Shown here: positions 6,225 to 63,086 of the stretch, piece after piece
Layout of the letters: each line of letters starts with the position of its first letter
How positions within the stretch are numbered: position 1 is the first letter of the stretch
From: Mobula hypostoma
Taxonomy: Eukaryota
Direction of reading: 5' to 3'
NCBI RefSeq assembly: GCF_963921235.1
Contig: NC_086097.1
Span: 105,464,001 to 105,528,000 of the forward strand
Length of the DNA: 64,000 nt
The notes under the pieces: model-generated
The model's input: the letters and a program-made list of their open reading frames with translations, nothing else
Database searches by the model: none
What the model was told of the DNA's origin: nothing
Program-made: the position numbers and the translations under genes

Positions 6225-6248
6225 GCCCAAACGATATTTGGACCAGAG

Positions 6249-18752: not shown

Positions 18753-19918
18753 TGTCACAGTGGGGACGCTGGTGATGGGAACAGACCCAAATGCAAGACA
18801 GACACTGAAGTACAAGGTACAGGACTTGACTAGAGTAGGGACGTGACAGGATTCAGACAAGGAGCAGGGACAAGAACACAGACTTGTGCTTGGACCCTGA
18901 GCCAGAGACTGGTCAAGGACCCAGAACCTCAGCCTTGCCTCGAGCTTCGGCCCCAGAACCAGGCATGGACATGACGTGACTTCATGACTGGAGGCTGGGG
19001 TCTTGAGGCTTGAGGCTTGGAGACAGGGTTGGAGGCTTCAGACTTGGGGTCTTGAGGCTTGAGGCTTGGAGACAGGCTTGGGGTCTTGACGCTGTAGGTT
19101 GGGGTCTTGGGTCTTGGAATGCGGAGTCTGATAACTCGGAGGCTGGAGCTTGGAGATAAACTGGGAACTGTACATCAACATGGAGCCGGGACTTATCCTT
19201 CGAAAAGCCAGGACTCATCTTCAACACGACACCAACATGAGACAGGACAGTACATAGACAAAGAGCCGGGACTTATACTTAGACCTGCCAGGACTCAACA
19301 TCATCTCCACACCAAGGTGGGACAGGACCATCCGTTAGGTAACGGCAGAACGGCCGGACTTACCCAACAGAGGCAAAGAAAAGACAAGACAAGACAGGAC
19401 CCTCCGCAGGGCAACGGCAGAACAGCCTGACTTACCCCACTGAAGCAAGGACAAGACAAGACAGATCCCCCCACAGGGCAATGGCAGAATGGCCTGACTT
19501 ACCCCACGGAGGCAAGGACAAGACAAGACAGATCCCCCCGCAGGGCAACGGCAGAACGGCCTGACTTACCCCACAGAGGCGAGGCCAACAAGAGACAAAC
19601 ACCAAAGAACAACAGACAGTTCCATCTCTGCATTGGTGATTGAACTCGACAGTGGTGCAGACAAGGTATCCAGGCAGAGGGTCAGGCGAGGTTTCCAGGC
19701 AGAGAGTCAGGTAAGGGGGGGGGTGGGGGAGGGAGACAGAGAGGGAAACAGGACAGTCCAGCAGGGAATCCCTAGTTTGCAGAGGTATTTATGTCTCAGC
19801 ACCAAAACAAGAATCATGTGCCCACAGCAGAAACTGGGGAAAACCAGAAACCCTGGAACAGGGAATCATGGACCGGGCTGTGAACCGGAACACGGACTTC
19901 ACGGACCGGATCATGACA
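18753..19918 (-). mobile_element. Complete solo LTR (copy A; progenitor-type of the amplified composite unit)
   Basis: TGTCA...TGACA termini; 5-bp TSD TTCCC (18748-18752 / 19919-19923); no coding capacity; four internal ~65-bp repeats at 19341-19590; homologous to 29792-31207 in opposite orientation. Strand is inferred from that homolog. Confidence 0.85.
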
Positions 19919-20001
19919 TTCCCATTCTGTAATCACCATTGAGTGAACAGTTGCCCAGTCTGCAATCACCATAGGTTGTATAGTTTACCATTCTGTAATC
20001 A

Positions 20002-23000
20002 CCATACAATCATATAACAATTACAGCACGGAAACAGGACATTTCGGCCCTTTTAGTCCATGCCGAACTCTTACTCTCACCTAGTCCCACCGACCTGCAC
20101 TCGGCCCATAACCCTCCAGACCTTTCCTGTCCATATATCTATCCAATTTAACTTTGAACGACAACATCAAACCTGCATCAACCACTTCTGCTGGAAGCTC
20201 GTTACATACAGCTACCACTCTCTGAGTAAAGTTCCCCCTCATACCCCTAAACTTTTGCCCTTTAACTCTCAATTCATGTCCTCTTGTTTGAATCTCTCCC
20301 CGTTCTCAATGGGAAAAGCCTATCCACGTCAACTCTATCAATCCCCCTCATAATTTTAAACACCTCTCTCAAGTCCCCCCTTAACCTTCTACACTCCAAA
20401 GAATACAGACCTAACTTGTCCGACCTTTCTCTGTAACTTAGGAGATGAAACCCAGGCAACATTTTAGTAAATCTCCTCTGTACTCTCTCAATTTTATTGA
20501 CATCTTTCCTATAATTCGGTGACCAGAACTGTACACAATACTCCAAATTTGGCCTTACCAATGCCTTATACAATTTCAACATTACATCCCAACTCCTATA
20601 CTCAATGTTCTGATTAATAAAGGCCAGCATACCAAAAGCTTTCTTCACCACCCTATCCACATGAGATTCCACCTTCAGGGAACTATGCACCATTATTCCT
20701 AGATCCCTCTATTCTACAGCATTCTTCAATGCCCTACCATTTACCATGTATGTCCTATTTTCATTAGTCCTACCAAAATGTAGCACCTCACATTTTTCAG
20801 CATTAAACTCCATCCGCCATCTTTCAGCCCACTCTTCTAACTGGCCTAAATCTCTCTGCAAGCTTTGAAAACCTACTTCATTATCCACAGCGCCACCTAT
20901 CTTAGTATCATCTGCATACTTACTAATCCAATTTACCACCCCATCATCCAGATCATTAATATATATGACAAACAACATTGGACCCAGTACAGATCCCCGA
21001 GACACACCACTACACACCGTCCTCCAATCTGACACAGAGTTATCCACCACTCCTCTCTGGCATCTCCCATCCAGCCACTGCAGAATCCATTTTACTACAT
21101 CGATATTAATGCCTAACAATCGATCCTTCCTAACTACCCTTCTGTGTGGAACCTTGTCAAAGGCCTCACTGAAGTCCATATAGACAACATCCACCGCTTT
21201 ACCTTCATCAACTTTCCTAGTAACCTCATCAAAAAATTCAATAAGGTTAGTCAAACATGACCTTCCATGCACAAATCCATGTTGACTGTTCCTAATCAGA
21301 TCCTGTCTATCCAGATAATTATATATACCATCTCTAAGAATACTTTCCATCAATTTACCCACCACTGACGTCAAACTCACAGGCCGATAATTGCTAGGTT
21401 TACTCTTAGAACCCTTTTTAAACAATGGAACCACGTGAGCAATACGCCAATCCTCCAGCACCATCCTTGTTTCTAATGACATTTGAAATATTTCTGTCAG
21501 AGCTCCTGCTATTTCCACACTAACTTCCCTCAAAGTCCTAGGGAATATCTTGTCTGGACTTATCCACTTTTATATTCCTTAAAAGCGTCAGTACTTCCTC
21601 TTCTTTAATCGTCATGCTTTCCATAACTACCCTTCTTGTTTCCTTTACCTTACACAATTCAATATCCTTCTCCTTAGTGAATACCGAAGAAAAGAAATTG
21701 TTCAAAATCTACCCCATCTCTTTTGGCTCCTGCAAATAGCCGTCCACTCTGATTCTCTAAGGGACCAATTTTATCCCTCACTATCCTTTTGCTATTAACA
21801 TAACTGTAGAAACCCTTTGGATTTATTTTCACCTTACTTGAAAAAGCAGCCTCGTATCTTCTTTTAGCTTTTCTAATTTCTTTCTTAAGATTCTTTTTAC
21901 ATTCTTTATATTCCTCGAGCACCTCATTAACTCCAAGCTGCCTATATTTATTGTAGATCCCTCTCTTTTTCCGAACCAAATTTCCTATATCCCTTGAAAA
22001 CCATGGTTCTCCAAACTTTGAACCTTTCCTTTCAACCTAACAGGAACATAAAGATCCTGTACCCTCAAAATTTCACCTTTAAATGACCTCCATTTCTCTA
22101 TTACATCCTTCCCATAAAACAAATTGTCCCAATCCACTCCTTCTAAATCCTTTCGCATCTCCTCAAAGTTAGCCTTTCTCCAATCAAAAATCTCAACTCC
22201 ATAATTATATTGAAACTAATGGTATTGTGATCACTGGACCTGAAGTGCTCCCCAACACATACCTCCGTCACCTGACCCATCTCATTCCCTAACAGGAGAT
22301 CCAACACTGCCCCTTCTCTAGTTGGTACCTCTATGTATTGCTGCAAAAAACTATCTTGCACACATTTGACAAAGTCCAAACCATCCAGTCCTTTCACAAA
22401 ATGTGCTTCCCAGTCTATGTATGGAAAATTAAAATCTCTCACAATCATAACCTTGTGCTTACTACAAATATCTGCTATCTCCTTACAAATTTGCTCCTCC
22501 AGTTCTCGGTCCCCATCAGGTGGTCTATAATATACCCCTATAAGTGTCACTACACCTTTCCCATTCCTCAATTCCACCCAAATAGCCTCCCTAGACGAGC
22601 CCACTAATCTATCCTGCCAGAGCACCACTGTTATATAATCTCTGACAAGCAATGCAGCACCTCCCCCTCTTGTCCCTCCTATTCTTTCACATCTGAAGTA
22701 ACGAAATCCTGGAATATTTAGTTGCCAATCACACCCCTGCGACCATGTTTCACTAATAGCTACAACATCATTTTTCCAGGTATCAATCCATGCTCTAAGC
22801 TCATCCACCTTTCTTACAATGCTCCAAGCATTAAAATAAATGCATTTAAGAAACTCTCCACCTCTTACTCTCTGTTTATCCTTAATGGAGTTAACAACTT
22901 TGTTATCTTTTTCTTCCTTGACCCCTACATCTTTCGTCTGAGTGCTCCCATTCTCTGTCCCCTGCCTATCCTCCCTCACACACTGTCTACTAGCTTTCTC

Positions 23001-24150: not shown

Positions 24151-27100
24151 TAACTATGTGTTTCCCATTCTGTAATCACCATAGGATGAACAATTTCCCA
24201 TTCTGTAATCACCATAGTGTGAACAGTTTCCTATTCTGTAATCACCATCGAGTGAACAATTGCATATTCTGTAATCACCACAGGGTGAGCAGCTCCCCCC
24301 CCCCCCCCGTAATCCAAATAGGTTGTAAAGTTTCCCATTCTGTAATCACCAGAGGGTGAACTGATTCGCAATCTGTAATGACTATAAAGTGAACAGCTTC
24401 CCATTGTGTAATCACCATAGGGTGTTCAGTTTTCCATTCTGTAATCACCATAGAGTGAACAGTTCCCCATTCTGCAATCACCATAGAGTGAACAGTTCCC
24501 CAATCTGTAATCACCATAGCTGTATCATTTCCCATTCTGTAATTACCACAGAGTGAACAATTTCCTATTCTGTAATCACCATTGGGTGAATAGTTTCCCA
24601 TTCTGTAATCAACATAGGTTGTATAGTTTCCCATTCGGTATTTACCGCAGAGTGCACAATTTCCCATTCTGTTATCACCGTAGAGTGAACAGTTTCCCGT
24701 TGTGTAATCAGAATAGTGTGAACAGTTTCCTATTGTGTAATCACCATAGTGTTAACAGTCTCCCATTCTGTTCTCACCATAGAGTGAACAGGTTCCCGTT
24801 CTGAAATCTCTGCAGAGAGAACAATTTTTAATTCTGTAATCGCCAGAGGATGAAATGTTTCCTATTCTGTGATCACAATATGGTGAACAATTTCCCATTC
24901 TGTAATCACCATAGGTTGGACTGATTCCCATTCTGTAACGAGTATAAAGTGAACAGCTTCTGATTGTGTAATCACCATAGAGTGAACAGCTTCCCATTCT
25001 GTAATCACCATCGAGTGAACAGTTTCCCATTCTGTAATCAACATAGGTTGTATACTTTCCCATTCTGTAATCACCATAGTCAACAGTTTCCAATTTTGTC
25101 ATCACCACAGAGTGAACAGTTTCGCATTCTGTAATCACCACAGAGTGAACAGTTTCCCATTCTGTAATCACCACAGAGTGAACAGCTTCCCAATTTCTAA
25201 TCACCATAGAGCGAACAGTTTCCCGTTCTGTCATCACAACAGAGTGAACAGTTTCCCATTGTGTAAACAGAATAGTGTGAACAGTTTACTATTGTGTAAT
25301 CAACATAGTGTTAACAGTTTGCCATTCTGTTCCCACCATAGTGTGAACAGATTCCCATTCTGAAATCTCGGCAGAGAGATCAATTTTCAATTCTGGAATC
25401 TCCATAGGATGAAATGTTTCCTCTTCTGTAATCACCCTTGAGTGAACAGTTTCCCATTCTGTAATCAGCATAGTGTGAACAGGTTCCCAATCTCTAAACA
25501 CCGTGGTGTGGACAGTTTCCCATTCTGTCATCACCACAGAGTGATCAGTTTCCCTTTTTGTAATCAACATAGGTTGTATAGTTTCCCATTCTGCAATCAC
25601 CAGAGGGTGCATATTTGCCCATTCTGTAATCAGCACAGGGTGAACAGTTTCCCATTCTGTAATCACCATCGAATAGACAGTATCCAATTCTGTAATCACC
25701 ATAGGGTGAACAGTTTCTCATTCTGTAATCACCATCGGGTGAACAGTTTCCCATTCTTTAATCACAGCAGAGTGAGCAGTTGCCCTTTTGGTAATCACAA
25801 TGTGGTGAATAGTGTCCCATTATGTAATGACCATAGCTGTATAGTTTCCATTCTGTAATCAACAGAGTGAACAGTTTCCCATTCTGTAATCACCTCAGAG
25901 TGGACAGTTGCCCATTCTGTAATCACTGTAGGGTGAATAGTTTCCCATTCTGTAATCAACATAGGTTGTATAGTTTCCCATTCTGTAATCACCAGATGGT
26001 GTATATTTTCCCATTCTGTAATGACCACAGGTTGTTTTGTTTCTCATTCTGTAATGACCGTAGAGTGAAATGTTTCCCATTCTGTAACCACAATAGTGTG
26101 AACAGGTTCCCATTCTATCCTCACCATAGAGTGAACAGTTCCCCAATCTGTAATCACCATAGCTGTATCATTTCCCATTCTGTAATCACCATTGGGTGAA
26201 TAGTTTCCCATTCTGTAATCAACATAGGTTGTATAGTTACCCATTCGGTAATTACCGCAGAGTGCACTATTTCCCATTCTGTTATCACCGTGGAGTGAAC
26301 AGTTTCCCGTTGTGTAATCAGAATAGTGTGAACAGTTTCCTATTGTGTAATCACCATAGTGTTAACAGTCTCCCATTCTGTTCTCACCATAGAGTGAACA
26401 GGTTCCCATTCTGAAATCTCTGCAGAGAGAACAATTTTTAATTCTGTAATCGCCAGAGGATGAAATGTTTCCTATTCTGTGATCACAATATGGTGAACAA
26501 TTTCCCATTCTGTAATCACCATAGGTTGGACTGATTCCCATTCTGTAACGAGTATGAAGTGAACAGCTTCTGATTGTGTAATCACCATAGAGTGAACAGC
26601 TTCCCATTCTGTAATCACCATCGAGTGAACAGTTACCCATTCTGTAATCAACATAGGTTGTATACTTTCCCATTCTGTAATCACCATAGAGTCAACAGTT
26701 TCCAATTTTGTCATCACCACAGAGTGAACAGTTTCCCATTCTGTAATCACCACAGAGTGAACAGTTTCCCATTTTGTAATTGCCATCGAGTGAACAGTTT
26801 CACATTCTGTAATCCCCACAGTATGAAAAGTTTCCCATTCTGTAATCACCATAGTGTGAATAGGTTCCCATTCTCTAATCACCATAGAGTTAACAGACTC
26901 CCATTCTGCAAACACCATAGTGTGAACAGCTTCCCAATTTCTAATCACCATAGAGCGAACAGTTTCCCGTTCTGTCATCACAATAGAGTGAACAGTTTCC
27001 CATTGTGTAAACAGAATAGTGTGAACAGTTTACTATTGTGTAATCAACATAGTGTTAACAGTTTGCCATTCTGTTCCCACCATAGTGTGAACAGGTTCCC

Positions 27101-27876
27101 CTTCAGAAATCTCGGCAGAGAGATCAATTTTTAATTCTGGAATCTCCATAGGATGAAATGTTTCCTTTTCTGTAATCACCCTCAAGTGAACAGTTTCCCA
27201 TTCTGTAATCACCATAGTGTGAACAGGTTCCCAATCTCTAAACACCGTGGTGTGGACAGTTTCCCATTCTGTTATCACCACAGAGTGAACAGTTTCCCTT
27301 TTTGTAATCAACATAGGTTGTATAGTTTCCCATTCTGCAATCACCAGAGGGTGCATATTTGCCCATTCTGTAATCACCACAGGGTGAACAGTTTCCCATT
27401 CTGTAATCAACATAGGTTGTATAGTTTCCCATTCTGTAATCACCATAGTTGTTTCATTTTCCATTCTGTAATCACCATCGAATGGACAGTTTCCAATTCT
27501 GTAATCACCATAGGGTGAACAGTTTCTCATTCTGTAATTACCATCGGGTGAAAAGTTTCCCATTCTGTAATCACAGCAGAGTGAGCAGTTGCCCTTTCGG
27601 TAATCACAATGGGGTGAATAGTTTCCCATTATGTAATGACCATAGCTGTCTAGTTTCCATTCTGTAATGAACAGAGTGAACAGTTTCCCATTCTGTAATC
27701 ACCATCAAGTGAACAGTTTCCCATTCTGTAATCAACATAGGTTGTACAGTTTCCCATTCTGTAATCACCATCGAGTGAACAATTCACCATGCTGTAATCA
27801 CAGTGGAGTGAGCAGTTTCCCATTCTTTTATCACATTCGAGTGAACAGTTTCCAATTCTGTAATCACCATACAATG
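24151..27876. repeat. 33-bp satellite block with kb-scale higher-order duplication
   Basis: Tandem monomers; runs of variants recur at offsets of 1610 and 1744 bp. Confidence 0.96.
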
Positions 27877-28558
27877 TAGATTAGATTAGATTGGATTAGA
27901 TTAGATTATGAGGACACGCAGTCCTCGTTTATTGTCATTTAGAAATGCATGCATTAAAAAATGATACAATTTTCCACTGGTGAGATATCACAAGACAGAC
28001 CAAGACTAAAACTGACAAAAACCACATAATTATAAAATAGAGTTACAGCAGTGCAAAGCAATATAGTAATTTCATAAGAGCAGACCATGGGCACGGCAAA
28101 AAAAGTCTCAAAGTCGCGATAGCCCCAACATCTCACGCAGACGGTAGAAGGGAGAAACTCTCCCTGCCATGAGCATCCAGATGCAACTTGCCGATATAGC
28201 ACCCTGAAAGCACCTGACCACTGTTCGACTCTAAGTCCGTCCAAAAACTTCGAGCCTCCGATCAGCCATTTGACAGCGAGCACCGAGCACCATCTCTGCC
28301 GAGCGCTTCGACCCCAGCCTCGGCCACCAGCAACAGGCAAAGCTGAAGATTCGGGGCCTTCCCCTCCGGAAATTCTGTGTCTCACAGTAGCAGCGGCAGT
28401 GAAACAGGCATTTCAGAGGTTTCACAAGATGTTCCTCCGTGCTGTCACGTCTGCCTCCATCAAATCAGAATTGTGGATGGCATCCTAGTTGGCAGATAAC
28501 AGATATTCATCACGGGAGAGGCCGCGTGCGCTGCATCGCGTTGCCATCTTCTCCTCCT
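27877..28558 (-). mobile_element. Short non-autonomous retroposon (LINE-derived or SINE-like)
   Basis: Minus strand starts GGAGGAGAAGATGGC and ends AATAAA, hairpin GAGGAC-N5-GTCCTC and an (AATCT)n tail; no recognisable ORF; satellite on both sides. Confidence 0.7.
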
Positions 28559-29791
28559 GTCTAGTTTCCCATTCTGTAATGACTAAAAAGTGAACAGTTT
28601 CCCATTCTGTAATCAACATCGACTTAACAGTTTCCCATTCTGCAAACACCATAGTGTGAACAGGTTCCCAATCTCTAATCACCAGAGAGTGAACAATTTC
28701 CCATTCTGTAATCACCATAGGGTGAATAGTTTCCCATTCTGTAATCACCATTGGGAGAACATTTTCCCATTCTGTGATCACCATAGCTGTATCGGTTCCC
28801 ATTCTGTAATCACCACAGAGTGAACAGTTTCCCATTCTGTAATCACGAAAGGGTGAATAGTTTCTGATTCTGTAATCAACATAGGTTGTACAGTTTCCCA
28901 TTCGGTAATCACCAGAGCGTGTATATCTTCCCATTCTGTAATGACCATAGCTGTATAGTTTCCCATTCCGTAATCACCATAGAGTGAACAGTTTCCCATT
29001 GTGTAATCACCATAGTGTTAACAGTCTCCAATTCTGTTCTCACTATAGAGTGAACAGGTTCCCATTCTGAAATCTCTGCAGAGAGAACAATTTTAAATTC
29101 TGTAATCTCCATAGGATGAAATGTTTCCTATTCTGTAATCACAATACGGTGAACAGTTTCCCATTCTGTAATCACCGTGGAGTTAACAGTTTCCCATTCT
29201 GTTATCACCATCGAGTGAACAGATTCCCATTCTGTAATCAACATAGGTTGTATACTTTCCCATTCTGTAATCACCATAGCATGATCTGTTTTCCATTCTG
29301 TAATCACCATACGGTGTATAGTTTCCCATTCTGTAATCACCAATACGGTGTATAGTTTCCTATTCTGTAATGACCAGCGAGTGACCAGTTTCCCATTCTG
29401 TAATCACCATACGGTGAACAGTTTCCCATTCAGTCATCACCGAAGGGCGTATAGATCGCATTCTGCAATCACCATAGAGTGAGCAGTTTCCAATTCTGTC
29501 ATCACCACAGAGTGAACAGCTTCCCATTCTGTAATCACCATCAAGCAAACAGTTTCCCATTGTGTAATCACCACAGTATGAAATGTTTCCCATTCTGTAC
29601 CCACAATAGGTTCCCATTCTCTAATCACCATAGAGTTAACAGATTCCTATACTGCAAACACCATAGTGTGAACAGGTTCCCATTCTAGAATGATCATGAA
29701 ATTAACTATTTCCCATTCTGTAATCACCAGAAAGTGAACAGTTTCCCATTCTGTAATCACCACAGGGTGAACTGTTTCCCATTCTGCATTC
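28559..29791. repeat. 33-bp satellite block
   Basis: Tandem monomers. Confidence 0.96.
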
Positions 29792-31207
29792 TGTCATTGT
29801 CCGGATCGGGGTCCCTTTAAATTTAGCTTGTTTATGTTACGATCCGGACCATTGATTCCCTGTTTCCCCATGTCCCTCGACTTTGGTGATTAGAGGCAAT
29901 TAACACTCGGCTGAACCGGTAGTTTATCGTCTCCGGCTGTCAGCCGTTCGGTGCGGGAACGTCTGCAAAGTCACGGCGTGCCAATGTCATCTGGCCGGAG
30001 CAAGACTTGTCTCCGCCCGAAGCGAGTGCCGGTAATTCGCCTTTCCTCACCGGAGCAACCCTGTCCAGTTACCTCGCCAAAGCGAGCCTGCAAAGTTTCC
30101 TCATCAAGGTGGGTCCGTCAGTTAACCCACTGGAGAGAATCAAGAGCCGCTGACTACTGTTCCCGGGCCGAGTCGAGAGCCTGGCACTACCCGGAGGTTC
30201 CAAGCACCACGTCCTGGCTCTGGCGGCATCCAAGTACCATGTCCACGTCCTGGCTCTGGCGGCATCCAAGTACCGCGTCCACGTCCTGGCTCTGGCGGCG
30301 TTCAAGTACCATGTCAAGTCCTGGCCCTGGAGGTGTTCAAGTACCAAGTCAAGTCCTGGCTCTGGCGGCGTTCAAGCACCAAGTCAAGTCCTGGTCCTAG
30401 AGGCTTCCCAGTTCTGAGTCAAGTCCCGCCCCTGGTGGTCTGTGATTCCTGTCCTATCCCCTTGTCTGAATCCCTTCTCTGCCCCTCTTGCCCCTAGCCC
30501 TCGTCTGCAGCCCCTGCCTGCACTTCGGCCTCGTTCCATCACCGGAGCTATATAGGTACTGTCTGGTGTTCATTGGTGTTGGTCTTGTCTTGTCTGGTCC
30601 TCACCTCCGTGGGGTAAGTCAGGCCGTCTTGCCATTGCTCCGCGGGGGGTCATGTCTTGTCTTGTCTGGTCCTCGCCTCTGTGGGGGTAAGTCTGACCAT
30701 CTTGCTGTTGCCCTGCAGAGGGTCATGAGTCCTGGCCCTATATCCTGTACCCTAGGAGGGGTCCCGGCCCTCTGTTCAGTGTAAGTCCCAGCCCTATGTC
30801 CTGTACCCAAGGAGGGGTCCCGACTCTGTGTTCTGTGTATGTGTCCATGGTTCCATGTACCTGCTCTCCCGAGACCGAGGCTCAGTGTTTCCATGTTCCT
30901 CCTCTCCCTAGCCCATGTCATGTCCATGCCTGGTTCTGGGGTCTGAGCCCAAGGCAAGACCCAGTCTCGGGCTCGGAGTCCATACCCTAGCCTCTTCATG
31001 TCTCCTCTAGTTCTGGGAGCCGATTCCGAGTCCAAGCCCAGACCCTTGGTCCCAGCCTAGTCGTAGTCCTGAGTCCTTGTCCAGTTTGCTACTCCTGCTC
31101 CTGCCTTGCTCTCCTAGTATCGAACAATAAACTAAATCTAAGTAACCTCACAAGATGTGTCTTGCATTTGGGTCCACACTTGCTCCCAATGCCCCGCCAT
31201 TGTGACA
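29792..31207 (+). mobile_element. Complete solo LTR (relative of copy A)
   Basis: TGTCA...TGACA termini; 5-bp TSD CATTC (29787-29791 / 31208-31212); AATAAA at 31126; shares GTCTTGCATTTGGGTC and GGGGTAAGTCAGGCCG blocks with the reverse complement of copy A. Confidence 0.87.
30210..30400. repeat. ~35-bp minisatellite inside the solo LTR
   Basis: GTCCTGGCTCTGGCGGCATCCAAGTACCATGTCCAC-like unit, about 5-6 copies. Confidence 0.85.
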
Positions 31208-40775: not shown

Positions 40776-41431
40776 TCTCTAATCAGCATAGAGTGAACAG
40801 TTTCCCATTCTGTAATCACCATAGGTGCATTGTTTCCCATTTTATAATCACCAATGGGTGAACAGTTTCTCTTCCTGTAGTTACCACAGTGTGAACAGTT
40901 TCAATTTCTCTAATCACCACAGTATGAAATGTTTGCCATTCTGTAATTACCGGAGGATGAACTGTTTCCATTCTGTAATGACCAAAAAGTGAACAGTTTA
41001 CCAGTCTGCAATCACCATAGTGTGAACAGTTTCCCATTCTGTAATCAACACAGGGTGTATAGTTTCCCAATCTGTAATCACTTTCGGGTGCATAGTTTCC
41101 CATTCTGTAATCACCAGAGGGTGTTTATTTTCCCCTACTGTAATCACCATAGGGCGAACAGTTTCCCATTCTATAATCAGCATAGGGTGAACTGTTTTCC
41201 ATTCTGTAATCACCATAGAGTGAGCAGTTTCAATTCTGTAATCTCCATGGAGTGAACAGTTTCCCTTTTCTGTAATCACCGCAGTATGTAATATTTCCCA
41301 TTCTGTAATCACCATAGTGTCAACAGGTTCCCAATCTCCAATAACCATAGAGGTAACAATTTCCCATTTTGCAATCACTATAGGGTGAACAGGTTCCCAT
41401 TCTGTAATCTCTGTAGAGTGAACAGTTTCCA

Positions 41432-51494: not shown

Positions 51495-52199
51495 ATGACA
51501 GACGCCGCATCTGTTCACGCAGTTTCGTTAGAACTGCCAAGCTTCTGGACGCTGCGATCCCATTTATGGTTCGAACAAGCAGAAGCACAATTCCACATTC
51601 GGCCGATAACCTCGGAGTCCACTCGTTACTACTACGTGCTGAGCTCCCTCGACCAGGAGGCTGCTGCACAAGTTGAGGAGTTTATACAGTCGCCCCCGGA
51701 GGACGGCAAATACACAGCATTCAAAACCCTGCTCATAAGGACTTTCGGACTCTCACGGCGTGAACAAGCTGCCCGCTTACTGCACCTGGATGGTTTGGGA
51801 GACAGGCCGCCGTCAGCATTAATGAACGAGATGCTGGCCCTAGCTGAAGGACACAAACCCTGCCTCATGTTTGAGCAGGCGTTCCTAGAGCAACTGCCCA
51901 AGGACATATGCCTGCTGCTGTCCGACGCAGATTTCAGCGACCCCCGGGAGGTGGCGGCCCGAGCAGATGTGCTGTGGAATGCCAGGAAAGAGAGAGGGGC
52001 ATCCGTCGCACAGATCACCAAGCCGCGTGCCCAACGACAGACCAGACCAGGCCCGGCAGCAGAGCCTACAAAACCCGGCGACGGGAGTGAGGAGCCCAAC
52101 GAACAATGGTGTTTCTACCACCAGCGGTGGGGCACGGAGGCCCGCCGCTGCAGACCGCCCTGCAAATTCCCGGGAAATGCCAGAGCCAGCCGCCGCTGA
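51495..52199 (+). CDS. gag: Gypsy Gag (234 aa, intact frame) with CHCC zinc knuckle
   Basis: ATG shortly after the PBS; LPSFW...WFEQAEAQF N-terminus; CFYHQRWGTEARRCRPPC. Confidence 0.9.
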   Translation: MTDAASVHAVSLELPSFWTLRSHLWFEQAEAQFHIRPITSESTRYYYVLSSLDQEAAAQVEEFIQSPPEDGKYTAFKTLLIRTFGLSRREQAARLLHLDGLGDRPPSALMNEMLALAEGHKPCLMFEQAFLEQLPKDICLLLSDADFSDPREVAARADVLWNARKERGASVAQITKPRAQRQTRPGPAAEPTKPGDGSEEPNEQWCFYHQRWGTEARRCRPPCKFPGNARASRR

Positions 52200-52222
52200 T
52201 GGCTACGGCGGCTGGCCATCAG
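52172..52222 (+). promoter_or_regulatory. Putative -1 ribosomal frameshift signal (gag-pol)
   Basis: G GGA AAT in gag phase, 6-nt spacer, perfect 11-bp stem GCCAGCCGCCG/CGGCGGCTGGC; pol lies in the -1 frame. Confidence 0.8.
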
Positions 52223-55200
52223 GACAGCCTCCTGTACGTCTGGGACAAACAGTCGGGACGCCGCTTTTTGGTCGACACCGGAGCGGAGATCAGCGTCTTA
52301 CCTCCAACGAGTTACGACACCCACAACAGAGAACCGGGACCCACCCTGAGGGCCGCTAATGGCAACACAATACGAACCTACGGCACCCGCACGGTGCGGC
52401 TACAGTTCAGCTCCAGCCGGTTCACGTGGGACTTCACACTGGCCGCCGTGGCCCAACCACTGCTGGGGGCAGATTTTCTATGAGCCCACAGCCTGCTGGT
52501 CGACTTGCAAGGGAAGCGATTAGTCCACGCCAAGACTTTTCAAACGTTCTCCCTGGGTGAAGCACAGTTGCCAGCCCCACACCTGGACTCCATCACGCTG
52601 TCCGACGATGAATTCACCAGGGTCCTGGTGGATTTCCCATCAGTACTGACACCGCAGTTCATGGCAGCCATGCCCAGACACGGAGTACAGCACCACATCC
52701 CGACCCAGGGACCACCCCTCCACGCCCGTGCTCGAAGGCTTCCCCCGGACAAGCTCCGACTGGCGAAGGAGGAGTTCAAGAAGATGGAGGAATTAGGGAT
52801 CATACGACGGTCCGACAGCCCATGGGCCTCCCCCCTTCACATGGTGCCCAAGGCAACGGGGGGGGCTGGAGACCATGCGGTGACTACCGCAGACTGAACG
52901 AGGCTACAACGCCAGACCGCTACCCTGTGCCGCACATTCAAGACTTCGCAGCAAACCTACACGGCGCAAGGATCTTTTCCAAGGTAGACCTCGTCCGGGG
53001 ATACCATCAAATCCCTGTACATCCGGACGACATCCCCAAAACAGCACTTATCACCCCGTTCGGACTTTTTGAATTCCTCCGAATGCCGTTTGGTCTAAAG
53101 AACGCCGCACAGACTTTCCAGCGGCTAATGGACGCGGTGGGACGCGACCTGGACTTTGCATTCATCTATTTGGACGACATCCTCATAGCCAGCAGTAGTC
53201 GGCAGGAGCATCTGTCCCACCTCCGCCAGCTCTACTCCCGCCTGAGTGAATTCGGCCTTACAATCAATCCAGCCAAATACCAGTTCGGACTCGACACCAT
53301 CGACTTCCGGGGCCACAGGATTACTAAAGGCGGGGCAACCCCGCTGCCCGCCAAGGTAGACGCGGTCCGCCACTTCCCCCGACCCAACACAATCAAAGGC
53401 TTGCAGGAATTCGTGGGTATGGTGAATTTCTACCACCGTTTCCTCCCCTCAGCAGCCCGAACCATGCGCCCCTTGTTCACTCTAATGTCGGGTAAGGGCA
53501 AGGACATTACCTGGAACGAAGAGGCCGCAACCGCTTTCGTTAAAACCAAAGAAGCCTTGGCAAACGCCGTGATGCTAGTGCACCCCAGAGCGGACGTTCC
53601 TACTGCCCTCACGGTGGACGCATCCAACACAGCAGTTGGTGGAGTGCTGGAACAACTCATCGAGGGTCGCTGGCAACCCCTGGCGTTCTTCAGCAAACAC
53701 CTACGACCACCCGAACTCAAATACAGTGCTTTCGACCGGGAGCTATTGGCACTATACCTGGCAATCCGGCATTTCAGGTACTTCTTAGAAGCTAGGCCCT
53801 TCACCGTGTTCACAGACCACAAACCGCTTACCTTTGCGTTCACTAAGGTGTCCGACCCCTGGTCGTCCCGCCAGCAGCGACATCTGTCCTACATCTCCGA
53901 GTACACGACGGACATCCGGCATGTCTCTGGAAAGAACAATGTCGTGGCAGACGCACTTTCCAGACCCACCATACAGGCCCTGTCCCAGGGGGTGGACTAT
54001 GCAGTGCTGGCAGAGGCACAGCAGGCAGACGCTGAGATCCTCAGTTACAGGACTGCAGTCTCCGGTTTACAGCTCCAAGACCTCCCCGTAGGCCCAGGTG
54101 AGAGGACCCTACTATGTGACGTAGCTACTGGCCAACCCCGCCCTGTCATCCCAGCAGCCTGGCGCCGGCGGGTGTTCGAATCCATTCACAACTTAGCGCA
54201 CCCCTCCATCAGGACAACTGTCCGGCTGGTCTCCAACAGGTTCGTGTGGCATGGACTTCATAAACAGGTCAGTGAATGGGCCAAAACGTGTATGCAGTGC
54301 CAAACGGCCAAGGTGCAGCGGCACACCAAGGCTCCACCGCAGCGGTTCGAACCCACCCGCCGGAGGTTCGACCACATCCATGTGGATATCGTGGGGCCCC
54401 TGCCAGTGTCGCGAGGAGCGCGGTACCTCCTAACTATGATAGACCGGTTCACCAGATGGCCAGAGGCAGTCCCGCTCAGCGACACCACCTCCGAATCCTG
54501 CGCCCGAGCACTGATCGCAACCTGGGTAGCACGCTTTGGGGTACCGGCCCACATTACCTCTGACAGGGGCACCCAGTTCACCTCCAGCCTGTGGTCGGCT
54601 ATGGCCAGACTTTTAGGAACACAGCTACGCCACACAACTGCCTACCACCCACAGTCGAACGGACTAGTGGAGCGCTTCCACCGTCACCTGAAATCAGCTC
54701 TCATGGCCGGCCTGGAGGGGCCTAACTGGGTGGATGAGCTTCCCTGGGTCCTGCTCGGAATCCGCACGGCGCCCAAGGAGGATCTGCACACCTCGTCGGC
54801 CGAGTTGGTGTACGGCACGCCCCTGATCGTCCCAGGAGAGTTCATACCAGCCCCAAGGGGGCAAGAGGAAGAACCCACAGCAGTCCTGGACAGACTATGG
54901 GAGAGGCTCGGTAACCTGGCCCCCATACCAGCACGGACAGAGCCCAACCTGCGTACCCAAAGACCTGCAGAACTGTAAGTTTCTTTTTGTACGACGGGGC
55001 GGACACCGGGCACCGCTACAGTGGCCCTACGAGGGGCCGTTTAAGGTGATCAGCAACAACGGGTCCACGTTCGTGCTGGACATTGGGGGGAGAGAGGAGG
55101 TTTTCATGGTGGACCGACTCAAACCGGCCCATGTGGACTTGGCGCAGCCGGTCCAGGCTCAGGCACCGCGGCGCAGGGGCAGACCTCCCAAACAGAGGCT

Positions 55201-55256
55201 GATCCAGACTGTGGACATTGGGGGAGGTATCGCCGGTTCTGGGGGGGGGGGGGTTA
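52172..55256 (+). pseudogene. pol: Gypsy pol; RT-RH-IN open for 718 codons (52822..54978)
   Basis: LVDTGA, YLDDIL, VDAS, FTDHKPL, HHCC, D-D-E integrase. Stop at 52481-52483, frameshift at the G run ~52858, deletion near 54928. Confidence 0.95.
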
Positions 55257-56302
55257 TGTGGCGACCCACTTTCTGACACCCACGAACCGGCTCACGAAAC
55301 AGCGCGCGCAGGCAGAGGGCCGGCAGCAAAAAGGGCGGGAACGGGAAGGCTTTAAAGCGGGCCGCGAAGTTTGAATAAACCTCTTTCATCGCAACTCCAA
55401 CTCACCGACTCCGTGTGGTTATTCTAGCGCTGTGTGTAGCACATCGCTACAGCATCTCCAAGTCTGCGGATGACACGAAGCTGGGTGGCAGTGTTAGCTG
55501 TGAGGAGGTTGCTAATAGGATGCAGGGTGACTTGGATAGGTCAGGTGAGTGGGCAAATTCATGGCAAATGGAATTTAATGTGGATAAATGTGAAGTTATC
55601 CACTTTGGTGGCAAAAACAGGAAAACAGATTATTATCTGAATGGTGGCGGATTAGGAAAAGGGGAGGTACAACGAGACCTGAGTGTCATTATACACCAGC
55701 CCTTGAAAGTGGGCATGCAGGTACAGCAGGAGGTGAAAAAGGCCAATTTGTAATCACCATAGGGGAACAGATTCCCATTCTGTAATCACCAAAGGGTGTA
55801 CATTTTCCCATTCTGTAATGACCATAGGTTGTATTGTTTCTCATTTTGTAATCACCATAGGTTCTATTGTTTCCCATTCTGTAATCACCATAGAGTGAAC
55901 TGTTTCCCATTCTGTAATGGCCATAAAGTGGACTGTTTCCGATTCTGTAATCATCAGAGGGTGAATAGTTTCCTATTCTGTAATCAACATAGGTGGTATA
56001 GTTTCCCATTCGGTAATCAACAGAGTTGTTTCGTTTTCCATTCTGTAATCAGCAGAGAACGGACAGTTTCCCAATCTGTAATCACCATAGGGGAACAGAT
56101 TCCCATTCCATAATCACCATAGAGTGAGTAGTTTCCCATTCTGTAATCACCTCAGTATGTAATATTTCCCATTCCATAATCACCATAGTGTGAACAGGTT
56201 CCCAATCTCCAATCACCATAGAGTTAAAAATTTCCCATTCTGCAATCACCATAGGGTGAACAAGTTCCCATTCTGTAACCCCTGTAGAGTGAACAGTTTC
56301 CC

Positions 56303-57431
56303 CGTCACAGTGGGGACACTGGTGGCGGGAACGGACCCAAATGCAAGACACAGACACTGAAGTAGAAGGTACAGGACTTGACTAGAGTGGGGACGTGACA
56401 GGATACAGACAAGGAGCAGGGACAAGAACGCAGACTTGGCCTTCACCCGCGAGCCAAAGTCTGGAGAAGGACCCAGCACCTGAGCCTTGCCTCGGGCTCG
56501 GGCCCCAGAACCAGGCATGGACATGATATGACTGCGTGACTGGAGTCTTGGGTCTTGAGGCTTGAGGCTTGGAGACAAGACTTGGAGACCGGCTTGGAGG
56601 CTTGAGCCTTGAGGCTTGGAGACTGGCTTGGAGGCTTAAGTCTTGAGGCTTGGAGACAGACTAGGGATCATGGGGCTGGAGGCTTGGAGACAGGCTTGGG
56701 GACTCGGAGCTGCAGACTTGGAGACAGGATTGGGGTTTGGAGGCTGCAGGCTTGGAGACAGGCTTGGTGTCATGAGGCTTGAGGCTTGGAGACAGGCTTG
56801 GAGACATGAGGCTGGAGGCCTGGAGACAGGGTTGAGGTCTTGAAGCTGGAGGCTCGGAGACAGGCTTGGTGTCATAAGGCTTGAGGCTTGGAGACAGGTT
56901 TGGGGTTCTGAGGCTTGAGGCTTGGAGACAGGCTTGGGGTCATGGGGCTGCAGGCTTGGAGACAGAATTGGGGTCTTGAGGCTGGAGGCCGGGAGACAGG
57001 CTGTGGGTCTTGAGTCTGGAGGCTTGGAGACAGGCTTGGTTTCTTGAGGCTTGGGGTCTTGAGGCATGAGGCTTGGAGACAGGCTTGGAGTCTTGAGGCT
57101 TGAGGCTTGCAGACAGGCTTAGGGTCTTGGAATGCAGAGGCTTAATACTTAGAGGCTGGAGCTCTGAGACAGACTGGGAACTGTACATCAACATGGAGCC
57201 AGGACTTATCCTTCGAAAAGCTGGGACTCATCTTCAACACAACATCAACATGAGACAGGACAGTACATAGACATACAGCCAGGACTTATACTTACACATG
57301 CCGGGACTCAACTTCATCTCCACACCAAGTTGGGACAGGACCATCCGCCAGGTAACGGCAAAATGGCCGGACTTACCCGACAGAGGCAAAGACAAGACAA
57401 GACAAGACAGGTCCCTCCGCAGGGTGCTGGG
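56303..57431 (-). mobile_element. Truncated LTR copy J
   Basis: Shared junctions. Confidence 0.9.
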
Positions 57432-57586
57432 TCTCTAATCACCATAGAGTGAACAGTTTCCCATTCTGTAATCACCATAGGGGTATTCTTTCCCATTTTA
57501 TTATCACCAATGGTGAAACAGTTTCTGTTCCTGTAATTACCACAGTGTGAACAGTTTCCCATTCTGTAATCAGCATAGGTGTATTG

Positions 57587-59873
57587 CACCTTGTCCCCAT
57601 TCCAACCTCACTCCTTCGGAACGCTCTGCTCTCCACTCCCTCTGTACTAATCCTAACCTTACTATTAAATCCGCCGATAAGGGGGGTGCTGTTGTAGTCT
57701 GGCGTACTGACCTCTACCTTGCTGAGGCACAGCGACAACTCGCGGATACCTCCTCTTATTTACCCCTCGATCGTGACCCCACTAAGGAGCACCAGGCCAT
57801 TGTCTCCCACACCATCACCGACTTTATCCGCTCAGGGGATCTCCCATCCACTGCTACCAACCTTATAGTTCCCACACCTTGCACTTCCCGTTTCTACCTC
57901 CTACCCAAGATCCACAAACCTGCCTGTCCTGGCCGACCTATTGTCTCAGCTTGCTCCCGCCCCACCGAACTCGTTTCTGCATACCTCGACACATACATCC
58001 CCCTTTGTTCAATCCCTTCCTACCTATGTTCGTGACACTTCTCATGCTCTTAAACTTTTCGATGATTTTAAGTTCCCTGGCCCCCACCGCTTTATTTTCA
58101 CCATGGATGTCCAGTCCCTATATACTTCCATCCCCCATCAGGAAAGTCTCAAAACTCTAAGCTTCTTTTTGGATTCCAGACCTAATCAGTTCCCCTCTAC
58201 CACCACTCTGCGTCTAGCGGAATTAATCCTTACTCTTAATAATTTCTCCTTTGGCTCCTCCCACTTCCTCCAAACTAAAGGTGTAGCTATGGGCATCCGT
58301 ATGGGTCCTAGCTATGCCTGCCTTTTTGTTGGCTTTGTGGAACAATCTATGTTCCGTGCCGATTCTGGTATCTGTCCCCCACTTTTCCTTCGCTACATCG
58401 ACGACTGCATTGGCGCTTCTTCCTGCACGCATGCAGAGCTCATTGACTTTATTAACTTTGCCTCCAACTTTCACCATGCCCTCAAGTTTACCTGGTCCAT
58501 TTCCGACACCTTCCTCCCCTTTCTAGATCTTTCTGTCTTTGTCTCTGGAGACAGCTTATCCACTGATGTCTACTATAAGCCTACTGACTCTCACAGCTAT
58601 CTGGACTATTCCTCTTCTCACCCTGTCTCTTGCAAAAACGCCATCCCCTTCTCGCAATTCCTCCGTCTCCGCCGCATCTGCTCTCAGGATGAGGCTTTTC
58701 ATTCTAGGACGAGGGAGATGTCTTCTTTTTTTAAAGAAAGGGGCTTCCCTTCCTCCACTATCAACTCTGCTCTTAAACACATCTCCCCCATTTCACGTAC
58801 ATCTGCTCTCACTCCATCCTCCCGCCACCCCACTAGGAATAGGGTTCCCCTGGTCCTCACCTACCACCCCACCAGCCTCCGGGTCCAACATATTATTCTC
58901 CGTAACTTCCGCCACCTCCAACGGGATCCCACCACCAAGCATATCTTTCCCTCCCCCCCCCTGCATTTCGCAGGGATCGCTCCCTACGCGACTCCCTTGT
59001 CCATTCGTCCCCCCCATCCCTCCCCGCTGATCTCCCTCCTGGCACTTATCCATGTAAGCGGAACAAGTGCTACACATGCCCTTACACTTCCTCCCTTACC
59101 ACCATTCAGGGCCCCAGACAGTTCTTCCAGGTGAGGCGACACTTCACCTGTGAGTCGGCTGGGGTGATATACTGCGTCCGGTGCTCCCAATGTGACCTTT
59201 TATATATTGGCGAGACCCGACGCAGACTGGGAGACCGCTTTGCTGAACACCTACGCTCTGTCCGCCAGAGAAAGCAGGATCTCCCAGTGGCCACACATTT
59301 TAATTCCACATCCCATTCCCATTCTGACATGTCTATCCACGGCCTCCTCTGCTGTAAAGATGAAGCCACCCTCAGTTTGGAGGAACAACACCTTATATTC
59401 CGTCTGGGTAGCCTCCAACCTGATGGCATGAACATCGACTTCTCTAACTTCCGCTAATGTCTCACCTCCCCCTCGTACCCCATCTGTTACTTATTTTTAT
59501 ACACACACTCTTTCTCTCAATCTCCTTTTTCTCCCTCTGTCCCTCTGAATATACCCCTTGCCCATCCTCTGGTTCCCCCCCCCGTCTTTCTTCCTCCTGT
59601 CCCATGATCTTCTCGTATCCCTTTTGCCTATCACCTGTCCAGCTCTTGGCTCCATCCCTCCCCCTCCTGTCTTCTCCTATCATTTTGGATCTCCCCCTCC
59701 TCCTCCCACTTTCAAATCCCTTACTCACTCTTCCTTCAGTTAGTCCTGACGAAGGGTCTCGGCCTGAAATGTCGACTGCACCTCTTCCTAGAGATGCTGC
59801 CGGGCCTGCTGCGTTCACCAGCAACTTTGATGTGTGTTGCTTGAATTTCCAGCATCTGCAGAATTCCTGTTGT
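57587..59873 (+). mobile_element. 5'-truncated Penelope-like element (RT plus GIY-YIG endonuclease)
   Basis: KSADKGGAVVVW, FYLLPKIHK, GRPIVS, MDVQSLYTSIP, GVAMG, LRYIDD, VIYCVRC..LYIGET; 11-bp TSD TAGGTGTATTG (57576-57586 / 59874-59884); frameshifted. Confidence 0.95.
59742..59777 (+). ncRNA. Minimal hammerhead ribozyme in the Penelope 3' terminal repeat (stem III variant)
   Basis: AGTC-CTGACGA-AGG-gtctcgg-CCT-GAAA-TG-TC-GACT. Confidence 0.78.
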
Positions 59874-60058
59874 TAGGTGTATTGTTTCCCATTTTTTAAT
59901 CACCACAGAGTGAACAGTTGCACATTCGGTATCGCCATAGGGTGAACTGTTTCCCATTATGTACACAACATATGTTGTATAGTTTCCCATTCTGTAATCA
60001 CCATAGAGTGAACAGTTTCCCATTCTGTAATGACTATAAAGTGAAGTTTCCTATTCTG

Positions 60059-61426
60059 CCTTGTCCCTGTGTCAAAGACGCCGCGCCCCAGTGGTCTCAA
60101 TGACGACAGACCGGTGGCATTGACCTCCCACATCATGAAGACCCTGGAGAGACTTGTTCTGGAGCTGCTCCAGCCTATGGTCAGGCCACACTTAGATCCT
60201 CTCCAGTTCGCCTACCAGCCCCTACTAGGAGTTGATGATGCCATCGTCTACCTGCTGAACCATGTCTATGCCCACCTGGACAAGCCAGCGAGCACTGTGA
60301 GGGTCATGTTTTTTGACTTCTCCAGTGCGTTCAACACCATCCGCCCTGCTCTGCTGGGGGAGAAGCTGACAGCGATGCAGGTGGATGCTTTCCTGGTGTC
60401 ATGGATTCTTGATTACCTGACTGGCAGACCACAGTACGTGTGCTTGCAACACTGTGTGTCCGACAGAGTGATCAGCAGCACTGGGGCTCCACAGAGGACT
60501 GTCTTGTCTCCCTTTCTCTTCACCATTTACACCTCGGACTTCAATTACTGCACAGACTCTTGTCATCTTCAGAAGTTTTCTGATGACTCTGTCATAGTTC
60601 GATACATCAGCAAGGGAGATGAGGCTGAGTACAGGGCTACGGTTGGAAACTATGTCACATGGCGTGTGCAGAATTATCTGCAGCTTAATGTGAAAAAGAC
60701 TAAGGAGCTGGTGGTAGACCTGAGGAGAGCTAAGGTACCGGTGACCACTGTTTCCATCCAAGGGGTCAGTGTGGACATGGTGGAGGATTACAAATACCTG
60801 GGGATACGAATTGACAATAGACTGGACTGGTCAAAGAACACTGAGGCTGTCTACAAAAAGGGTCAGAGTCGTCTCTATTTCCTGAGGAGACTGAGGTCCT
60901 TTAACATCTGCCGGATGATACTGAGGATGTTCTACGAGTCTGTGGTGGCCAGTGCGATCATGTTTGCTGTTGTGTGCTGGGGCAGCAGGCTGAGAGTAGC
61001 AGACACCAATAGAATCAACAAACTCATTCGTAAGGCCAGTGATGTTGTGGGGATGGAATTGGACTCTCTGATGGTGATGTCTGAAAAGAGGATGCTGTCC
61101 AAGTTGCATGCCACCTTGGACAATGTCTCCCATCCACTACATAATGTACTGGTTGGGCACAGGAGTACATTCAGCTAGAGACTCATTCCACTGAGATGCA
61201 ACACAGAGCGTCATAGGAAGTCATTCCTGCCTGTGGCCATCAAACTTTACAACTCCTCCCTTGGAGGGTCAGACACCCTAAGCCAATAGGCTGGTCCTGG
61301 ACTTATTTCCTGGCATAATTTACATATTACCATTTAACTATTTATGGTTTTATTACTATTTAATTATTTATGGTGCAACTGTAACGAAAGCCAATTTCCC
61401 CTGGGATCAATAAAGTATGACTATGA
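60059..61426 (+). mobile_element. 5'-truncated Rex1/Babar LINE family B
   Basis: ORF 60069..61178 RT (KFSDDS); (TATGAC)n tail; duplication CTATTCTG (60051-60058 / 61427-61434). Confidence 0.94.
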
Positions 61427-61826
61427 CTATTCTGTAATCACCGTAGACTGTACAGTTTCCCATTGTGTAATCACCATAGTCTAAACAGTTTCCACCTCCG
61501 TTCTCACCATCGAGTGAACAGTTTCCCATTCTGTAATCACGGCAGAGTGAACAGTTACCCATTCAGTAATCAAGATAGGTTGGAGAGTTTCCCATTCTGT
61601 TATCACCATAGGTTGTATAGTTTCCCTTTCTCTAATCACCAGAGGGTGTATATTTCAGAATTCTGTAATCAACATAGGGTGAACAGTTTCCCATTCTACA
61701 TTCACCATAGGGTGAACAGTTTCCAATTCTGTCATCACCACAAAGTGAACAGTTTCCCTTTTCTGTATCACCACAGTATGAAATGTTTCCCATTCTTTAA
61801 TCACCACAGTGTGAACAGGTTCCCAT

Positions 61827-62107
61827 AGAACCATAGAACCATAGAAACAACAGCACAGAAACAGGCCTTTTGGCCCTTCTAGGCTGTGCCGAACCATTTT
61901 CTGCCTAGTCCCACTGACCTGCACACGGACCATATCCCTCCATACGCCTCCCATCCATGTATCTGTCCAATTCATTCTTAAATGTTAAAAAAGAACCTAC
62001 ATTTACCACCTCATCTGGCAGCTCATTCCATACTCCCACCACTCTCTGTGTGAAGAAGCCCCCCCAATGTTCCGTTTAAACTTTTCCCCCCTCACCCTTA
62101 ACCCATG
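61827..62107 (-). mobile_element. CR1 3' fragment
   Basis: (CCATAGAA)n tail; CR1 C-terminus (FFTQRVVGVWNELP); TCCCAT at both junctions. Confidence 0.88.
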
Positions 62108-62144
62108 TCCCATTCTGTAATCTCTGCAGAGTGAACAGTTTCCC

Positions 62145-62869
62145 CGTCACAGTGAGGAAGCTGGTGATGGGAACAGACCCAAATGCAAGACACGGACACC
62201 GAAGTAGAAGGTACAGGAGTTGACTACAGTAGGGACGTGACAGGATACAGACAAGGAGCAGGGACAAGAACGCAGACTTGGGCTTGGACCACGAGCCAGA
62301 GCCAGGAGAAGGACCCAGCACCTGAGCCTTGCCTCGGGTTCGGGCCCCAGAACCAGGCATGGACATGATATATCTGCATGACTGGAGGCTGGGGTCTTGA
62401 GGCTTAAAGACAGGCTTGGGGACATGTGGTTGGAGGCTTGGCGACAGGCTTATGGACTCGAGGCTGCAGGCTTGGAGATAGGCTTGGGTTTTGAGGCTGC
62501 AGGCTTGGAGACAGTCTTGGGGTCTTGAGGCATGAGGCTTGGAGACAGGCTTGGGGCTTGGATCTTGGAATGCGGAGGCTTAATACTCGGAGTCTGGAGC
62601 TCTGAGACAGACTGGGAACTGTACATCAACATGGAGCCGGGACTTATCCTTCGAAAAGCCGGGACTCATCTTCAACACGACACCAACATGAGACAGGACA
62701 GTACATAGACATAGAACCAGGACTTCTACTTAGACAAGCCGGGTCTCAACTTCATCTCCACACCAAGGTGGGACAGCACCATCCATCGGGTAACGGCAGA
62801 ACGGCCCGACTTACCCAACAGAGGCAAAGACAAGACAAGATAAGACAGGTCCATCCGCAGGGTGCTGGG
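62145..62869 (-). mobile_element. Truncated LTR copy K
   Basis: Shared junctions; short minisatellite. Confidence 0.9.
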
Positions 62870-62999
62870 TCTCTAATCACCATAGAGTGAACAGTTTCCC
62901 ATTCTGTAATCACCATAGGGTTAACAGTTTCCCATTCTGCAATCACCATAGGGTGAACAGATTCCCATTCTGTAATCTCTGCAGAGTGAACAGTTTCCC

Positions 63000-63086
63000 T
63001 GTCACAGCGGGGACGCTGCTGACGGGAACGGACCCAAATGCAAGACACGGGCTCTGAAGTAGAAGGTACAGGACTTGACTAGAGTA
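63000..63086 (-). mobile_element. LTR copy L (left end only, cut by CR1)
   Basis: Same left junction GTTTCCC|TGTCAC. Confidence 0.85.

Follow-up and report, generated by a model that had tools for sequence, protein, structure and literature searches.

How does one piece of a retroelement come to stand 12 times within a satellite of short monomers, each time on the same strand and in the same phase? The question is raised by a stretch of 64,000 bp from Mobula hypostoma (NCBI RefSeq assembly GCF_963921235.1, contig NC_086097.1, positions 105,464,001 to 105,528,000 of the forward strand), which is called the window here and numbered from its first letter. The window contains a 33-bp satellite with 641 monomer matches, about 21 kb in sum, which is interrupted by many retroelements, and 12 copies of one long terminal repeat (LTR). 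These copies are designated A to L in the order of their starts at positions 18753, 32359, 34866, 37515, 39439, 41432, 43898, 45724, 48393, 56303, 62145, and 63000. With a probability of roughly 0.8, all 12 descend from a single insertion of a solo LTR, which was a passenger of kilobase-scale duplications of the satellite itself.

The LTR copies and their common junction

A first-pass annotation, made from the letters of the window, had listed the 12 LTR starts, and all of them were exact. The 12 copies share one strand and one phase of the 33-bp satellite; the strand is the minus strand, as assigned from a reverse match of A to a related solo LTR with an AATAAA motif near its plus-strand end. 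Copy A (18753 to 19918) is 1,166 bp long, possesses TG...CA termini, and is flanked on both sides by the 5-bp target duplication TTCCC. It is the only complete copy with a target duplication, as the annotation had stated. Satellite is present on either side of A without an adjoining internal domain, and A is a member of a dispersed family, which identifies it as a solo LTR. Its ends resemble what we take to be those of fish gypsy LTRs. No parent internal part could be linked to this LTR within the window, and the full elements at about 5966 to 10270 and at 51260 to 55451 carry other LTRs.

Ten of the 11 remaining copies share a truncation at position 659 of A that is followed by a filler, which is also in agreement with the annotation. 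The junction is exact in the eight copies B (32359 to 33861), C (34866 to 36234), D (37515 to 38387), F (41432 to 42610), G (43898 to 44770), H (45724 to 46910), J (56303 to 57432), and K (62145 to 62870), and it occurs as a variant in E (39439 to 40776) and I (48393 to 49229). The filler of 7 to 8 bases leads from the truncated LTR into the satellite and nearly repeats the 7 bases preceding it; a search for its template within A and the flanks of A yielded only two matches with one mismatch each, which were taken as chance. Both sides of the target duplication survive in A only, the right side having been lost by B to K in the shared truncation. Copy L (63000 to 63086) ends after 87 bp, where it is interrupted by the tail of a long interspersed nuclear element (LINE).

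The monomer in front of the LTR is a variant with T at positions 11 and 13, counted from 0, to which 14 of the 641 monomers belong. It precedes 11 of the 12 copies and is also found at three LTR-free places (24798, 26408, and 29064), so that the earlier statement of the same rare monomer before all copies holds for every copy except J, which is preceded by another variant. From B to I, the starts are 2,507, 2,649, 1,924, 1,993, 2,466, 1,826, and 2,669 bp apart, with 20 to 44 monomers in each interval. These are seven head-to-tail units of 1.8 to 2.7 kb with a repeating pattern of transposable elements (TEs) over positions 32359 to 48392, thus more than 10 kb, albeit uniform neither in length nor in identity. 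The annotated unit of about 1.8 to 2.7 kb consequently describes 7 of the 11 intervals. It does not describe A-B, with 13,606 bp of unrelated structure, K-L, with 855 bp and 4 monomers, or I-J (7,910 bp) and J-K (5,842 bp), both of which were enlarged by later TEs. The nonsatellite gaps from B to I consist of the LTR relic only, plus one insert within B, a LINE 3' tail at about 33090 to 33585. Every later TE is confined to a single unit, as had been noticed before.

Duplication of the relic together with the satellite

The satellite blocks were aligned monomer by monomer and compared with 30 shuffles, which reached a maximum score of 67. The seven blocks from B to I were collinear, with 17 of the 21 pairs scoring between 85 and 407 and the lowest pair scoring 70. 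This indicates that the LTR relic and the satellite were duplicated as one unit. Windows in register were mostly 0.88 to 0.98 alike compared to about 0.76 off register, which is the pattern of a satellite higher-order repeat. The common strand and phase of all 12 copies, their shared left flank, and the collinear blocks are the features of elements copied after integration. In a tree of the copies, B to I formed a clade (100/97) with A, J, and K outside, and four of the seven inner branches stayed open.

The satellite does not need the LTR for such events. It makes up LTR-free arrays throughout the window and matches no part of A, so the array is not wholly retrotransposon derived. Within the LTR-free satellite at 24167 to 27887 (plus strand), the segments 24502 to 25880 and 26145 to 27689 are 97.8% alike on aligned columns, the result of a duplication of about 1.6 kb. 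A kilobase-scale duplication of its own in LTR-free satellite makes the LTR a passenger. The first-pass annotation had described three nested levels as the outcome of the LTR amplification; the kilobase level was thus not made by the LTR, and the 7/34-bp level is a property of the dispersed family. The same LTR-free region also shows traces of an older higher-order layer, to which the three look-alikes of the pre-LTR monomer at the LTR-free places named above are assigned.

The satellite to the left of B (28571 to 32358, plus strand) matches the middle of the unit across the site of the related solo LTR at 0.887, which is the joint top value of 458 windows with a median of 0.758. This related solo LTR (29792 to 31207) is on the plus strand, opposite to A, is 75 to 87% identical to parts of A, sits in another phase of the satellite, and has its own 5-bp duplication, CATTC. 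Homologues of the mid-unit satellite flank it on both sides, and the other units lack an insertion at this site.

Copy A and the dispersed LTR family

Contigs from 4 of 23 listed sequencing runs were aligned to A, and 40 of 353 differences, 15 of 388 joints, and 24 of 1,778 loose ends were inspected. Thousands of contigs on A characterize the LTR as a high-copy dispersed family. In X1, the contig depths added up to mostly 4e4 to 2e5 across the initial 660 bp of the LTR (range of the bins, 1.8e4 to 8.9e5), a depth that is not a copy number. The left junction of A was matched without differences by X1 contigs at a depth of 13 to 14, and the loose ends at position 19918 were heterogeneous, with 113 contigs in X5, 40 in X10, and an agreement of 0.33 to 0.36. 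Both the LTR family and the satellite were matched by contigs from three sampled organisms among the aligned runs. A fourth organism (run X10) had relatives of the LTR, and its zero depth over the satellite island left of A, at 82% likeness, reflects a lack of coverage. Exact scans of JGI metagenome contigs yielded no match for the junction and none for the monomer, which is uninformative with respect to the host genome.

Sixteen of the 40 inspected differences were in aligned nonrepetitive LTR parts and were used for polarization against the family. At positions 18818, 18931, and 19222, a letter common to all or all but one of the copies A to L was absent from 87 to 96% of the family depth in X1 and X5. 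These three family-rare letters in common support a single insertion from which A and B to L would stem. Alternatively, the three letters could mark a small subfamily. The flank points in the same direction as a common insertion: the eight closest matches of the two monomers left of A were the flanks of B, C, D, E, G, H, I, and L, with 4 to 6 mismatches in 66 bp, and the nearest other place had 7 (slicing artifacts at the window start ignored). A site-specific insertion targeted to the satellite disagrees with the shared rare letters, the related LTR in the other phase, and the heterogeneous flanks of the family, as judged without a genome-wide count.

The first-pass annotation had named A the intact progenitor-type copy. 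At 11 of the 16 polarizable sites, only A departs from the family letter, while one site (18933) is mixed and one is uninformative. Moreover, 25 of 499 columns separate A from every one of the copies B to K, and no other copy is as distant, the divergence of A from the others being 10.3 to 14.4%. This means that A kept mutating and is of the progenitor type in its structure only; it is a diverged sister copy.

Age of the array and exchange between the units

The array is old and decayed in relative terms. Apart from D and G, the copies B to K differ by 6.4 to 11.8%, and the LTR copies are depleted of CpG, with an observed-to-expected ratio of 0.40 to 0.55. Since the copies, A included, are 6 to 14% apart and riddled with many later TEs, the "birth" of a macrosatellite, as the array had been introduced, is not supported. 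Absolute dating was rejected: applying the mutation rate of the epaulette shark, given as 7e-10 per generation in PMC10587355, to a divergence of about 7% results in about 5e7 generations, which is not credible, so that relative ages only are used.

An inner 34-bp minisatellite of the LTR adds length differences of its own. Its span is 163 bp in A and 220 bp (in K) to 862 bp (in C) in the others, or 1,003 bp in B including the insert. This minisatellite is the deepest part of the family coverage, and back-jumps of 34 to 102 bp occurred in all four runs, which indicates that it varies family-wide.

Two copies depart from the general divergence. Copy D with satellite on both sides (36750 to 39023, plus strand) and the tract that holds G (43133 to 45406, plus strand) form an exact repeat of 2,274 bp. 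The two tracts are nonadjacent, 6,383 bp apart, and the 330 bp outside of them agree to 76% on the left and to 94% on the right. Zero differences correspond to a calculated divergence of below about 0.13%, under one-fiftieth of the spread of the array. The D/G repeat reads as a recent in-register conversion or copying event between nonadjacent units, with an assembly artifact as an alternative. A smaller recent event is a tandem duplication in the H-I block (47039 to 47566, plus strand) of 264 bp, or 8 monomers, with 98.1% identity.

Plain tandem amplification, as proposed in the first pass, is therefore not sufficient: the units were indeed codu­plicated, but the D/G repeat, which had gone unnoticed, joins nonadjacent units, and divergence has no trend along the distance in the array (rho 0.03, P = 0.86). 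The comparison between the LTR tree and the adjacent satellite, recommended by the annotation as a check, was performed. LTR distances correlated with those of the right flank (r = 0.64, P = 0.044, 6 copies) and not with those of the left flank (r = -0.02, P = 0.56, 7 copies), both being weak comparisons.

Evaluation of the rate of change needs to consider the uncertain position of A as an outgroup. With A in this role, the interior copies D, E, F, and H had 24 to 33 non-CpG changes versus 9 to 11 in the edge copies J or K (P values of 0.001 to 0.024 from nonindependent tests), which is 2.4 to 3.3 times as many, and the excess in B, C, and I was not significant on non-CpG sites. The branch lengths from the basal node were about 0.04 for B, J, and K and 0.07 to 0.08 for A and C to I. 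However, 16 of the 25 columns specific for A could not be polarized. If all 25 are placed on the branch of A, then A (0.08) equals C to I (0.07 to 0.08), and B, J, and K are short. For this reason, it was not taken as shown that the array core changes faster.

A doubtful idea is that the LTR relic acts as a mutation reporter. Units of the array core would be copied by an error-prone, nonadjacent, in-register mechanism of the break-induced-replication type, with the D/G repeat as a fresh product. In PMC8997354, error-prone break-induced replication is put forward as a source of the fast change in centromeric higher-order repeats. If the idea is true, mutagenic amplification could be measured in a vertebrate lineage that evolves slowly.

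Proposed history and alternative explanations

The history would have started with an element of the dispersed high-copy family that inserted into the satellite and was reduced to a solo LTR. The site may then have been duplicated, leaving one copy as A. In the other copy, a deletion of the end-joining type would have removed about 510 bp of the LTR together with the right target duplication and left the filler. End joining with templated insertion can leave a filler that nearly repeats adjacent bases. Units of differing length could have arisen when monomers to the left and right of the relic recombined out of register, J-K and K-L early and B to I from one later unit, with differing crossover points. 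Gain and loss of monomers, slippage of the minisatellite, insertion of single TEs, and in-register copying of nonadjacent units, recently in the case of D and G, would have followed. A deletion first and out-of-register recombination thereafter is the simplest reading, inferred from the present arrangement. The outline of the annotation, with one insertion, one truncation, coamplification, and later TE insertions, is in this respect borne out by the rare shared letters, the junction, and the collinear blocks. The process was likely a neutral turnover of heterochromatin, which implies no function.

Several observations weigh against this history. Just 2 to 3 monomers of the satellite island left of A (18426 to 18752, plus strand), the last ones, resemble the flanks of B to L; the block of A scores at most 8 against theirs, which is within the shuffled range; and the right flank of A does not put the flanks of the junction in first place. 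The short flank and the three letters are all that holds A in its place. At the mixed site 18933, A agrees with B, C, J, and K, whereas D to I have the family letter. Among the 15 of 388 joints listed for the contigs on A, that of the truncation did not appear, which is no proof of its absence, so the junction is known from the assembly only. Among informative non-CpG sites, 98 of 300 pairs were incompatible, and the distances in the first and second halves of the LTR were not correlated (r = 0.15, P = 0.27, 9 copies, G omitted as identical to D), so that the order of events within B to I is not fixed. The incompatible pairs and the absent trend with distance are as expected for repeated exchange or homoplasy. 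Finally, L, cut at 87 bp, may once have been complete.

This last point would fit another origin of the junction. The first tandem duplication may have had its breakpoint here, with a template switch leading from position 659 of the LTR back to upstream satellite and no separate deletion, which would place the complete original at L and make A an earlier duplicate. Most of the unit satellite has homologues left of B, and the filler nearly repeats its preceding bases, as template switching presumably can leave it. Nevertheless, the breakpoint is an unlikely origin, because neither k-mer diagonals nor inspection by eye revealed a homologue left of B for the first four monomers behind the junction, and the second monomer after the junction (as in F) belongs to the same class, comprising 42 of the 641 monomers, as the second right-hand monomer of A, which a deletion predicts. 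Alternatively, only B to L may have one origin, and A may be another family member that inserted independently at this phase owing to a target preference. The high divergence of A, its short shared flank, and the existence of three LTR-free look-alikes of the pre-LTR monomer agree with independence. It is nevertheless very improbable in view of the three family-rare letters common to A and B to L, the two-monomer flank of A being closest to theirs, the related solo LTR in another phase and strand, and the heterogeneous family flanks at the 19918 end.

The remaining two explanations concern the array as such. A part of it, above all the D/G repeat, may be an assembly artifact made of joined haplotypes or a false duplication, while the older structure is real. 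The 2,274 bp without a difference stand among units that differ by 6 to 12%, and this part is known from the assembly alone. An artifact is, even so, rather improbable: the window contains no N, the flanks of the tracts (76% and 94%) differ far more than alleles would, the tract should be short relative to long reads, and other recent duplications are close by (97.8% and 98.1%). The truncated LTR might also have driven the amplification or have been selected in it as a functional composite, for instance, as a centromeric or small-RNA source. Ten truncated copies face a single complete one, and tandem repeats of transposon origin are bound to CENH3 in Rosa canina (10.64898/2026.09.17.752431). 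The LTR-free satellite, however, has undergone later duplication of the same scale, the copies are decayed, CpG depleted, and interrupted by many TEs, Rfam gave no match over 18300 to 64000, and the truncation removes the part with the only TATA-like motif found in A. A functional role is hence extremely unlikely, and descent from one passive insertion remains the preferred explanation.

Other elements of the window

In the window, reverse transcriptase (RT) or integrase domains were present in six of the eight frames scanned and a DUF7041 domain in a seventh. The I-J unit contains a later LINE (49260 to 55742, plus strand) that includes the full LTR retrotransposon at 51260 to 55451 of another family. 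This element has RT, RNase H, and integrase, LTRs of 195 bp with 190 of 195 positions identical, a 4-bp duplication, and an open pol stretch of 788 codons. It is 95% alike over 4 kb to the full element at about 5966 to 10270, the LTRs being partly different, and each of the two is apparently nested in a LINE. The J-K interval (57588 to 62108) contains three later retroelement pieces (about 57588 to 59875, 60058 to 61428, and 61826 to 62108) between short satellite blocks; the pieces are presumably Penelope-like and Rex/Babar-like. LINE tails of the type in the window are presumably typical of cartilaginous fishes.

The later LINE insertions at 33090 to 33585, 49260 to 55742, and 61826 to 62108 seemingly lack a target duplication and came with a loss of flank, about 20 bp in B and two monomers before K. 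A non-LTR retroelement piece is inverted around 11222 to 12606 and 13266 to 13675 and occurs again at 60053 to 61429 in J-K (94.6% over 1,386 bp). Inner minisatellites of a different kind (35/36 bp and 56 bp) are present in the related solo LTR, so that sister LTR families develop tandem arrays in comparable internal positions. At 3626 to 4850, the satellite is locally homogenized, with about four monomer variants in changing order and exact matches of up to 291 bp, which is a young short-period higher-order patch.

Comparison with known systems

Searches of the open-access literature, aside from supplements, whose satellite catalogs might contain the monomer, yielded no description of the 33-bp satellite or of such a composite in cartilaginous fishes, and the satellite is not mentioned in the available part of PMC11406177. 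Comparable cases come from animals that we take to be a wasp (Anoplius), the takahe (Porphyrio hochstetteri), and the red deer (Cervus elaphus). Transposons copied after their integration in a satellite include five Gypsy-LTR elements with identical target duplications in Anoplius nigerrimus, 11 LINEs in P. hochstetteri, and 6 retroviruses in C. elaphus (10.64898/2026.09.17.752431); the available part of this source gave no match for shark, ray, or elasmobranch. The array in M. hypostoma would share with them one integration in a satellite, the same strand, shared flanks, host recombination, and similar copy numbers. Those cases are centromeric and of high identity, whereas the array here consists of a truncated solo LTR, is old (6 to 14%), and has an intact sister beside it.

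Human megasatellites are another group. ACRO units of about 6 kb are composed of TE pieces and blocks of about 1.6 kb of a 147-bp satellite, and human MaLR LTR arrays have an LTR6A insertion as the marker of their higher-order unit (Warburton 2008, PMC2588610). Kilobase units of TE pieces plus short-monomer satellite, nested levels, and an LTR as a marker are common to both, and the human arrays were attributed to unequal crossing over. Unlike these arrays, which are mostly more than 94% identical and in some cases on many chromosomes, the present one has seven regular units of uneven length with about 88 to 94% identity at one known place.

ATHILA elements and solo LTRs were duplicated within the CEN180 arrays of Arabidopsis (10.1101/2021.05.30.446350), and Alu and L1 copies were amplified in human Yq12 and alpha-satellite arrays, where they served to tag expansions (PMC11451754). 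There as here, insertions were copied by the mechanism of the higher-order repeat and serve as internal markers, and gene conversion was proposed for nonadjacent copies, comparable to D and G. Those copies are young and mostly 2 to 6 in number; here, 12 copies are present with a shared internal deletion. CRM1TR and CRM4TR of maize, with LTR-containing kilobase monomers that were shaped by deletion and gene conversion and dated by later insertions (PMC3648361), are similar in all these respects but wholly retrotransposon derived, while about half of each unit here is preexisting satellite.

Earlier descriptions of the process exist for insects, birds, mammals, and plants, and the array of M. 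hypostoma is another instance. What it provides is a base-resolved record of satellite turnover, in which a nonrepetitive passenger orders the insertion, the truncation, rounds of duplication, later TEs, and one recent nonadjacent copying event. Its value compared to these systems is not that of a new kind but that of a marker for array evolution and of a test case for error-prone copying.

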